Positions 23,411-24,714 of a DNA stretch of 64,000 nucleotides are shown piece by piece; position 1 is the first letter of the stretch, and each line of letters opens with the position of its first letter. The stretch is taken from NCBI GenBank assembly GCA_030446545.1, contig JAUJNB010000001.1, forward strand, positions 280,885 through 344,884. The letters are read 5' to 3'. The stretch comes from Acidimicrobiales bacterium. Its GTDB lineage: Bacteria; Actinomycetota; Acidimicrobiia; Acidimicrobiales; CADCSY01. Position numbers and translations under genes: made by a program. The notes under the pieces were generated by a model. The model was not told the DNA's origin. It ran no database searches and worked only from the letters and a program-made list of their open reading frames with translations.

Positions 23411-23929
23411 CTACGCCGGAAACGGCACAGCAAAGCACATCACCAGGAACACGGCGAGATCGAATGCGTCGGCAGCCTCGGCGATGGTGCTCGATCTGAA
23501 CGGCCCTCGGGGTATGGCGACCGGGGTGCGATCCTCGCGCTCAAGGAGGGAACTGGCGTAGCCGCTGTGGCGGTAGAGGTAGGACCGTTCTCCGACGTTG
23601 ACGACGATTCCTCGTCTGCGGCGGCTGAACACGGCCGAATGAAGTTGTACCGCCTCACCGGTGTGCGCTCCTACGAACACCGGCACAGGATCCACGAGTG
23701 AGGTGTGGCGCTTGCCGTCCAACCGCCCTGCACGTCCGATCTCGAAGCGGCCGTCGGGCAGGTGGGGCCCCCATGCCCGCGTGACCAGCCCATCGTCGCT
23801 GTAGCCCGCGTAGGCAGGCCCGTGCGGTCCCTCATACAACCCATGCGCCTCGACGCCAGGGGGCGAGCCGGCAACGTCATCCGTCGCACCTCGGAGGATG
23901 AAGGCCACCATGGCCGCCTTCGGTGTCAC
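23411..23929 (-). CDS. multicopy ~170-aa family protein, copy 2
   Basis: GTG at 23929 overlaps the EspG-like stop (GTGA). VTPKAAMVAFIL..LYEGPHGPAYAG..RAWGPHLP..GRLDGKRHTSLVD..FSRRRRGIVV..RSYLYR..AEAADAFDLAVFLVMCFAVPFPA. Confidence 0.7.
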   Translation of the reverse strand: MTPKAAMVAFILRGATDDVAGSPPGVEAHGLYEGPHGPAYAGYSDDGLVTRAWGPHLPDGRFEIGRAGRLDGKRHTSLVDPVPVFVGAHTGEAVQLHSAVFSRRRRGIVVNVGERSYLYRHSGYASSLLEREDRTPVAIPRGPFRSSTIAEAADAFDLAVFLVMCFAVPFPA

Positions 23930-24714
23930 GGGGAAACCGCCTCCTCTCCCGGCAGCAGGGCACTGAGCCGGCGCCACACCTCGCCCGAGGACACCGGCTG
24001 CAGGGTCACATCCAGGGCAGGATCTTCGAAGTCGGCTTCCTCAGGGGTCGAAGAGAGCCAGTAGCCGGCGTCGACGGCATCGACGACGGTGAGCGAGGTG
24101 CTCCGGGGTCGGTCGTCCTGCCAGAGCGAGGTGGCCCGCCAGGTGAGACGGCGGCTCTCCAGCATGTTCACCACCGCCGCGGCCGTTTCGGCCTCCAAGT
24201 GGGCCTTGGCCCGCAGCGATGTCACCGCTCGGGCGGGGCCCTCGGACTCGACCTCGGCCATGGCTGCGTCCAACAGTCGCCGGGCGACGATGACGGGACG
24301 GGCCGGGAAAGGCGCTGGCCGCCGGCGCAGCGCGACCAGGTGGCCGAGCACCCACGGCACCAAAGATGGGGAGACCGGGGCGTAGGCGTAGCGGTCCTCT
24401 CCCACCATGCCCTCGGCCATCACGCCCAGATCGGCACCCAGCCACAGCGTGTGGCTGGGACCGGGGACGTCGCCGATGGTGGTCTCCACCTCCACCAGGA
24501 GCCGGGGACGAGCGAGCACGGCCAGCAACTCGGCTACCTCGCGCACCAGTACGCCGCTCACCCGGGCCCCGGCTGCGGCGAACGCCTGCAGCGTGGCCCG
24601 GGCCTGCTCGTCTGCCAGGGCCGGAGCGCCTGGCTCGCTGACGCTCAGGAGCAGGGTGGCCACCTGTTCAGGGCGGGCCCACAGGCGCTGGCGACCGGCG
24701 TCGAAGCGGATCAC
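23926..24714 (-). CDS. EspG-like protein (putative T7SS substrate chaperone), tentative
   Basis: GTG at 24714 within ORF 23926..24879. 263 aa. The C-terminus TSLTVVDAVDAGYWLSS..DPALDVTLQPVSSGEVWRRLSALLP parallels the EspG C-terminal pattern; M. tuberculosis EspG1 ends ..GVLDSKLGRLVSLP..SFLPGTQQNLERALDGLLELLP. Size and position beside a secretion substrate also fit. Confidence 0.5.
   Translation of the reverse strand: MIRFDAGRQRLWARPEQVATLLLSVSEPGAPALADEQARATLQAFAAAGARVSGVLVREVAELLAVLARPRLLVEVETTIGDVPGPSHTLWLGADLGVMAEGMVGEDRYAYAPVSPSLVPWVLGHLVALRRRPAPFPARPVIVARRLLDAAMAEVESEGPARAVTSLRAKAHLEAETAAAVVNMLESRRLTWRATSLWQDDRPRSTSLTVVDAVDAGYWLSSTPEEADFEDPALDVTLQPVSSGEVWRRLSALLPGEEAVSP

Follow-up and report, generated by a model that had tools for sequence, protein, structure and literature searches.

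The gene at positions 23926-24714 (-) of a 64,000-nucleotide stretch of DNA from an Acidimicrobiales bacterium (GCA_030446545.1, contig JAUJNB010000001.1, positions 280,885 to 344,884) encodes a protein of 262 amino acids (aa) that is supported as a distant member of the EspG fold family, in that a family profile and a predicted fold agree. The whole stretch is referred to as the window, and strands are given in parentheses after window coordinates. We read this EspG-like protein, with moderate confidence, as a chaperone of the EspG fold that acts in the cytosol for a type VII-like secretion pathway, putatively on the product of the gene directly upstream. The host belongs to a class that is distant from the Mycobacteriales and has no mycomembrane. 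The homoserine dehydrogenase encoded in the window fits this placement: it shares 91% identity with its counterpart in an Actinomycetota metagenome-assembled genome (MAG) and 85-86% with those in several Acidimicrobiales MAGs.

Profile and fold of the EspG-like protein

The Pfam profile PF14011 matches the 262-aa product with 26.7 bits (gathering cut-off 27.0; E 5e-6) over the model positions 20-243 of 245; a search of NCBIfam with the same product gave no match. Within the wider family, PF14011 matches 33 of the 91 aligned members (E <= 0.01; best E 9.1e-14) and no other family recurs. A precomputed PF14011 match exists for two close homologues, and the Pfam model evidently captures part of this family already.

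A structure was predicted with AlphaFold2 (AF2) from the 91-sequence alignment without templates, with a predicted local distance difference test score (pLDDT) of 96.4 and a predicted template-modelling score (pTM) of 0.90; a run with nine close sequences (pLDDT 59.9) was set aside for this model. When the model was compared with the PDB by use of Foldseek, ranks 1-18 were all EspG3, EspG5 or EspG1 (E 3.4e-12 to 5.9e-8; probability 1.0), with template-modelling (TM) scores of 0.51-0.63 over 208-287 aligned columns, i.e. essentially full length, at 14-18% identity; then follows a cliff to rank 19 (E 8e-3, TM 0.14). The EspG fold, with its two quasi-symmetric alpha/beta lobes, is present here in a predicted, not a solved, structure, and no hydrophobic segment is predicted for the product. 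The first-pass annotation, which was made from the letters of the window only, had suggested EspG homology, and both lines of evidence uphold it: neither a lack of profile or structural similarity nor a better match to another fold was found. Matches to 14-3-3 proteins in the searches of PDB sequences were rejected as spurious; they fall on an RRxSWR motif.

Gene, copies and relatives

The window has a G+C content of 70-75% and spurious open reading frames (ORFs) are plentiful, so that frames were assigned by third-position GC together with homologues. Third-position GC backs the frame of 23926-24714 (-), which is an uninterrupted ORF of 262 codons; its GTG start lies 16 nucleotides past the stop of the upstream gene, with GAGG ahead of the start, and the homologues share the identical start MIRFDAG. 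Nine close homologues were recovered by a word-indexed search, and an exhaustive profile search extended the family to 153 cluster representatives, mostly of 240-300 aa; the broad alignment was too divergent for the design of a pattern. Full-length orthologues of 65-71% identity are present in at least six assemblies, and a scan of GTDB species genomes revealed no close relatives.

The C-terminal module of the protein recurs in the window, as the first-pass annotation had noticed: tblastn with the 262-aa product gave three further sites with E 1e-46 to 2e-11, i.e. 29710-30144 (145 aa, 61% identity, E 1e-46), 21017-21226 (70 aa, 87% identity, E 3e-34) and 28942-29040 (33 aa, 82% identity, E 2e-11). 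The first of these sites is part of a chimeric gene (see below), and the other two are 3' remnants (both (-)), each located directly upstream of a gene of a family of ~170-aa proteins. The copies hence comprise one full gene and one fusion, as had been counted, and two short remnants instead of three. DNA identity among the copies of the C-terminal module is 67-88%, and the blocks of a 170-aa gene with an EspG 3' end are 70-78% identical to one another; judged from their sequence, the repeats are old, diverged paralogous cassettes and not chance matches, and the 67-88% identity between the copies rules out assembly duplication as their origin.

Conserved neighbourhood and candidate client

The gene directly upstream (24731-25684 (-)) encodes a 317-aa protein, termed effector 1, which has a helical N-terminus, an FWxGxDG motif, and a C-terminal Gly/Ala/Ser-rich hydrophobic helix pair ending in NPFD; the hydrophobic helix comprises residues 252-273 in the window copy, with a glycine-rich helix ahead of it. 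Alignments of the effector family show that the C-terminal ~110 residues are conserved, with the hallmark RGLGVxGG...QGNPxxAF...YxADxAxTxF..S..AF...PNPxT..A..VTG..WxGxEAW, and that the helical N-terminus is variable in length and sequence; WxG-like motifs were seen by eye. No match of the family was found in Pfam, NCBIfam or PDB, and for effector 1 none in Pfam at E <= 1. The profile T7SS_signal reached only E 0.3 on a 517-aa relative from another locus (L005), and WXG100 reached E 0.06-0.16 on the effectors of locus L006.

The neighbourhood was compared across eight independent loci, whose EspG-like proteins are 30-70% identical. A gene of the effector family abuts the EspG-like gene in seven of these eight, immediately upstream of it in the window and in L001/L002, L003/L004, L005, L008 and L009, and immediately downstream in L010. 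In L006/L007 (57% GC), the EspG-like gene lies between the genes for a 403-aa membrane-type effector and a 317-aa CHAP effector, which have a common WXG-type N-terminus, and an EccC-like ATPase gene is adjacent. Because the effector family is linked to the EspG-like gene across loci, effector 1 is the best-supported client, and we infer that it is also the likeliest. Two candidate clients had been proposed for the window at first pass, the adjacent effector and the ~170-aa family; the conserved neighbourhood favours the former, and the latter is less favoured. A helical protein of 112-118 aa is encoded just upstream in L005, L008 and L011, and that of L005 ends in a YxxxD-type motif (by eye).

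Some further observations were made at these loci. A 315-aa effector in L012 (5180-6127 (-)) is 52% identical in its N-terminus to effector 1 and 39% identical in its C-terminus to effector 2, a second effector of the window (see below), a pattern which suggests, on sequence grounds, domain shuffling between two effector families. The L006/L007 locus (GCA_036399775.1, 20.8 kb) contains the EspG-like gene (PF14011) by the EccC-like ATPase gene and WXG100 genes, followed by genes for a Ser/Thr kinase-FHA protein, a VWA-FHA protein and more kinases; a 276-aa neighbour carries PF27351. This arrangement resembles sensing clusters that are integrated into Esx operons (PMC13622651). In L001, a trio of a 95-aa protein, a 310-aa protein and EspG was considered as a PE/PPE-like arrangement and rejected, as the protein of 95 aa proved to belong to the ~170-aa family, in truncated form.

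Type VII secretion ATPase and absence of PE/PPE

A gene for an EssC/EccC-type type VII secretion ATPase (33846-38102 (-), 1418 aa; N-terminal FHA plus FtsK_SpoIIIE domains) is located 9 kb upstream of the EspG-like gene on the shared strand. The ATPase matches TIGR03928 (E 1e-144) and TIGR03924 (E 1.8e-107), both under the equivalog cut-offs, and is the sole core component of type VII secretion in the window; the other scanned window genes are housekeeping genes.

No match at threshold to PE (PF00934) or PPE (PF00823) was found among the scanned products, with some small ORFs not scanned. The absence of PE/PPE genes that had been read from the window at first pass holds at the Pfam thresholds for every scanned product, and the sole trace is sub-threshold: the product of 27445-27789 (+) scored with PPE (E 2.9e-4; 21.3 bits vs 26), EspB_PPE (1.4e-3), WXG100 (8e-3) and TIGR03930 (2.8e-3). 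This product is a WXG-type helical protein of 115 aa with the motif ALWEG, which is 64% identical to a 118-aa protein of L001, relative to which the gene is inverted; it is a possible candidate for a small partner of the effector. A WXG100-like small protein (32589-32849 (-)) is 95% identical to a 114-aa protein of L011, and a further WXG-like protein is encoded at 17964-18467; the scores of the WXG-type small proteins in the window are sub-threshold.

Proposed role

In the proposed mechanism, the EspG-like protein would bind effector 1, keep it soluble and secretion-competent, and hand it to the ATPase. The proposal draws on the fold, on the ATPase gene, the WXG-type small proteins and a T7SS_signal protein (14353-15915) in the window, and on the linkage of the EspG-like gene to the effector family. 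The proposed shielding of effector 1 parallels the covering of the aggregation-prone PPE tip by EspG in PE-PPE-EspG complexes.

Several points weigh against this proposal. Effector 1 has no detectable WXG100, LXG, T7SS_signal, PE or PPE domain, and it is the genomic context that points to it as a type VII substrate. EccB/D/E, MycP, EssA/B and EsaA were not found among the scanned window products, and in L008 more than 10 kb separate the module from any EssC/EccC-type ATPase gene. The PF14011 score of the window protein is 0.3 bit under the curated cut-off. Neither phmmer nor a profile search of PDB sequences retrieved an EspG, so the link to the solved EspG structures is carried by the fold comparison and by Pfam. 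Finally, the position directly downstream of a toxin gene is often that of an immunity gene, as in the Eat/EatI loci (PMC13444075), and would also fit a function of the EspG-like protein other than chaperoning.

This last point leads to an alternative, i.e. that the EspG-fold protein is the immunity protein or antidote of effector 1, which would bind and block the toxin in the producer and not direct it to export, with another role for the ~170-aa family. In six loci, the EspG-like gene indeed directly follows the effector gene, where polymorphic toxin loci usually have their immunity gene (cf. PMC13444075); however, all solved relatives of the EspG fold are chaperones, the gene order is reversed in L010, and the EspG-like gene is single-copy and well conserved, whereas it is the ~170-aa family that shows immunity-like arrays and divergence. 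Moreover, the location of the L006 gene between two different effectors (membrane-type and CHAP) suits a chaperone for their common N-terminus better. We consider a role in immunity unlikely.

The ~170-aa family and its cassettes

The gene directly downstream of the EspG-like gene encodes a member of the ~170-aa family (copy f, 23411-23929 (-)); the stop codon of the EspG-like gene and the start codon of copy f overlap (GTGA), and the Shine-Dalgarno sequence of copy f, GGAGAGGAGG, lies within the EspG-like gene, at its 3' end. In total, the window contains eight copies or fragments of this family, which are 42-68% identical: in addition to copy f, these are copy h (20479-20997 (-); 68% identity to copy f), copy b (28421-28936 (-)), copy a (29198-29707 (-); downstream of the chimeric gene), three more copies at 25749-26192, 26274-26780 and, truncated, 26864-27172 (all (-)), and a fragment of residues 59-118 (21238-21417 (-)). 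In other loci, the family is found beside EspG-like or effector genes (L003, L005, L008 and L012), and it is missing in L006 and L010. The window also contains 5' remnants of effector-1 type at 27226-27312 (-) and at ~21358-21466. A recurrent module member is the product of 27924-28409 (-), a DUF3093/DUF6232-like protein of 162 aa that has two transmembrane segments.

For the ~170-aa proteins, neither a match to a known family nor traits of a secreted type VII substrate were found, and we infer that they are probably an immunity-like or accessory partner. In the proposed mechanism, the translationally coupled ~170-aa protein would be the third partner, most likely an immunity-like antidote or a co-chaperone, and its family would be the amplified and diversified member of the module. 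The conserved EspG-like 3' end, which travels with each ~170-aa gene, would probably serve as a homology arm for duplication or exchange of cassettes, and such events may have left the two short EspG-like remnants.

The client escorted by the EspG-like protein might instead be the coupled ~170-aa protein itself, or a complex of effector and ~170-aa protein. The tight translational coupling (GTGA overlap plus Shine-Dalgarno sequence) would fit, as would the observations that, in each of the four copies, the EspG 3' end has moved with the 170-aa gene as a unit and that the family co-occurs with EspG-like genes in the window and in the four loci L003, L005, L008 and L012. Against this stand the lack of a helical hairpin, of WXG or YxxxD/E-type features and of any family match in these proteins, the absence of the family beside the EspG-like genes of L006 and L010, where the effector is present, and the gene order in L003 and L012, in which the 170-aa gene is found upstream of the effector gene and not after the EspG-like gene. 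A ~170-aa client is likewise unlikely, and effector 1 remains the preferred client of the EspG-like chaperone.

Chimeric gene and family B

The chimeric gene (29704-30983 (-)) consists of residues 1-273 of a protein family termed family B (30166-30983) and of EspG-like residues 123-261 (29710-30144), with the junction at ~30145-30165 and a frame break near 30900 in the family B part. The EspG-like part derives from a second EspG-like paralogue, which is apparently whole in other assemblies (P0008, P0011). All homologues of the N-terminal part are stand-alone proteins of 270-275 aa, one of which (P0167; 98% identical to the N-terminal part) ends unfused at ...DTPHRR, and the fused form is unique among the homologues recovered.

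A stand-alone paralogue of family B, B', is encoded in the window at 32935-33740 (-), where the frame is broken near 33162, within a C5G3 run; its orthologue in L011 is an uninterrupted protein of 281 aa with 86-89% identity. Effector 2 (31536-32503 (-)) is the orthologue of a 323-aa protein of L011; a frame break near 31856 divides its gene, and it is similar to effector 1 at the C-terminus. A DUF3093-like membrane protein of 180 aa (30983-31521 (-)) has a frame break near 31210. The intact order in L011 is TadB, TadC, B' (281 aa), WXG-like (114 aa), effector 2 (323 aa), DUF3093-like (180 aa) and B (270 aa). In comparison with these intact orthologues, the window has four frame disruptions (30900, 31210, 31856 and 33162) within 2.3 kb; the 4.2-kb ATPase gene and module 1 (effector 1, EspG-like protein and copy f) are without frame breaks.

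The first-pass annotation had described 29704-30983 as a fusion of the EspG-like module behind a domain of about 190 aa that also exists alone (32905-33782). The domain does exist alone, but it is nearly the whole of the 270-281-aa family B; the two spans are not multiples of three and cross the breaks at ~30900 and ~33162, and the fusion is specific to the window and lies in a frame-disrupted module. As the L011 arrangement is intact while the window module has four frame breaks, the chimeric gene is probably a rearrangement scar in a decaying module and not a designed architecture; it may have arisen by joining of the 3' end of a family B gene to the middle of the second EspG-like paralogue. 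Given that the 4.2-kb ATPase gene next to them is without breaks, random sequencing error is an unlikely cause of these disruptions, although the location of one of them in a homopolymer run leaves some room for it.

It appears quite improbable that the island is mostly a graveyard, in which the remnants, the chimera and perhaps also the intact EspG-like gene have no current function: the four disruptions within 30.9-33.2 kb relative to L011, the truncated or stop-interrupted 170-aa copies, the effector 5' remnants and the uniqueness of the chimera would all fit such decay, but module 1 and the ATPase gene are intact with strong codon bias, the EspG-like protein has the full-length orthologues of 65-71% identity in at least six assemblies, and its family folds with very high confidence (AF2).

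Family B (270-281 aa; no Pfam match) closes a recurrent module of a WXG-like protein (114 aa), an effector (~320 aa), a DUF3093-like protein with two transmembrane segments, and B. Its sites are 30166-30983 and 32935-33740 in the window, 2016-2861 and 4781-5593 in L011, and 3794-4612 in L012. The C-terminal ~55 residues of family B resemble the C-terminal motif of the EspG-like proteins (WR..S...GLW...V....S..E....L..LL). A comparison of the family B profile with the EspG-like profile, by which it was asked whether the N-terminal part of the chimera is a diverged EspG N-lobe, was not significant (2.6% probability), and no homology of family B to EspG is therefore claimed; the chimera as single sequence aligned with the EspG-like profile from position 86 onward only. 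Family B, located at the place of EspG in its own module, may be a second chaperone family. Several homologues of the EspG-like protein and of family B in other assemblies (P0008, P0009, P0172 and P0173) are frameshifted gene calls with window matches in two frames; the locus is either error-prone to assemble or often degraded.

Tad operon and other genes

The ATPase gene is located inside a Tad-pilus operon, with genes for SAF/CpaB, an Ssd-like protein and CpaF upstream, and with those for TadB, TadC, Flp and TadE downstream of the island. The ATPase gene and the ~13.4-kb cassette island sit between cpaF (38157-39467) and tadB (19561-20388), with the ATPase gene and the Tad genes in the regions 33846-41546 and 16388-20388. 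The Tad genes are contiguous in L001 and L011, where the secretion modules are found downstream and convergent (L001) or after TadC (L011). For the window TadC (T2SSF; 18637-19562 (-)), the C-terminal 174 residues alone match the L001 orthologue (76% identity), and the N-terminal part is in another frame (ORF 19131-19562); this frame change may be a further frame break. The minus-strand island is interrupted by plus-strand genes at 21461-23082, and plus-strand genes are found also at 12473-13417; the products of 22159-23082 and 12473-13417 each share ~42% identity with a 214-aa protein encoded beside the L001 Tad locus.

A 520-aa product with a T7SS_signal domain plus DUF2515 is encoded at 14353-15915 (-). 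This ORF (14012-15915 region, (-)) is located directly after Tad genes and a gene for a 94-aa helical protein (15922-16206); third-position GC shifts near 14650 to the frame of the ORF 14012-15037, which suggests a frameshift or an overlapping downstream gene.

Comparison with known systems

EspG confers specificity in that it directs PE/PPE proteins to individual ESX systems, and espG follows pe-ppe in ESX-3 and ESX-5; the EspG-like gene of the window likewise lies directly after the gene for a larger helical protein. With the mycobacterial EspG1, EspG3 and EspG5 (PF14011; PDB 4L4W, 4W4I, 4KXR, 4W4L, 5VBA, 6UUJ), the window protein has the two-lobed alpha/beta fold in common over the full length; the sizes are similar (~260-300 aa), a membrane segment is found in neither, and the genes of both cluster with those for an FtsK/SpoIIIE-type type VII ATPase and WXG-type proteins. 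In contrast, the identity is only 14-18% and the PF14011 score is just below the cut-off, the host, an Acidimicrobiales bacterium, is of a different class that has no mycomembrane, and no PE/PPE, EccB/D/E or MycP were found in the window. Unlike in mycobacterial ESX, the ATPase resembles EssC in having an FHA domain, and the neighbouring candidate client comes from a family that is unrelated to PE/PPE and whose hydrophobic C-terminal domain is conserved.

In the published model, ESX gained espG along with pe/ppe in a plasmid-borne ancestor, within the Mycolata (PMC4791881), and ESX-4 systems are without espG and pe/ppe (PMC4779608); no discussion of EspG-type proteins outside mycobacteria and their close relatives was found in the literature searched. 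An EspG chaperone uncoupled from PE/PPE, represented by 153 or more sequence clusters in a class of the Actinomycetota that is distant and has no mycomembrane, and tied to another effector family, would make this type of chaperone older and broader than its textbook role. EspG chaperoning could even be, as we suggest tentatively, an ancient part of minimal WXG-FtsK-type systems across the Actinomycetota, possibly beyond (57%-GC locus L006), and not an invention of the Mycolata and PE/PPE; it would serve here a new membrane-inserting effector family and its ~170-aa partner, and family B would be a second EspG-derived chaperone that has diverged past sequence recognition.

The LXG/Lap systems of the Bacillota and the Eat/Tap/EatI systems of the Actinomycetota (PMC13444075, PMC10801868) have a like order of genes, i.e. 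WXG-like protein, effector and accessory genes, as seen in L005, L008 and L011. They likewise have paralogous effectors with shuffled N- and C-terminal parts (cf. the 315-aa effector of L012), arrays of a family of small proteins encoded downstream, and remnants. However, the effectors described here are conserved in the C-terminus and variable in the N-terminus, which is not the pattern of a conserved N-terminus with a variable C-terminal toxin, and the module includes an EspG-fold protein, which is not described for LXG or Eat loci in the literature searched.

In the orphan toxin-immunity cassettes of contact-dependent inhibition (CDI) and Rhs systems, 3' fragments of the upstream gene precede each duplicated small gene, in tandem arrays that are able to recombine with the expressed locus. 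Short 3' fragments of an upstream gene are found ahead of duplicated small genes here too, but the retained fragment is the conserved end of a chaperone fold and not a variable toxin domain, and the exchange is putative.

The two uncharacterised families, i.e. the effector and its ~170-aa partner, would add to a type VII repertoire that is linked to interbacterial competition (PMC13444075), and their three- or four-gene module offers a simple setting for the recognition of substrates by EspG. The finding also hints at the nature of the ancestral EspG client and makes this question testable. We would class the protein as a distant relative within the EspG fold family, in a new and moderately surprising setting, with an FHA-bearing EssC-like ATPase and a new candidate client.

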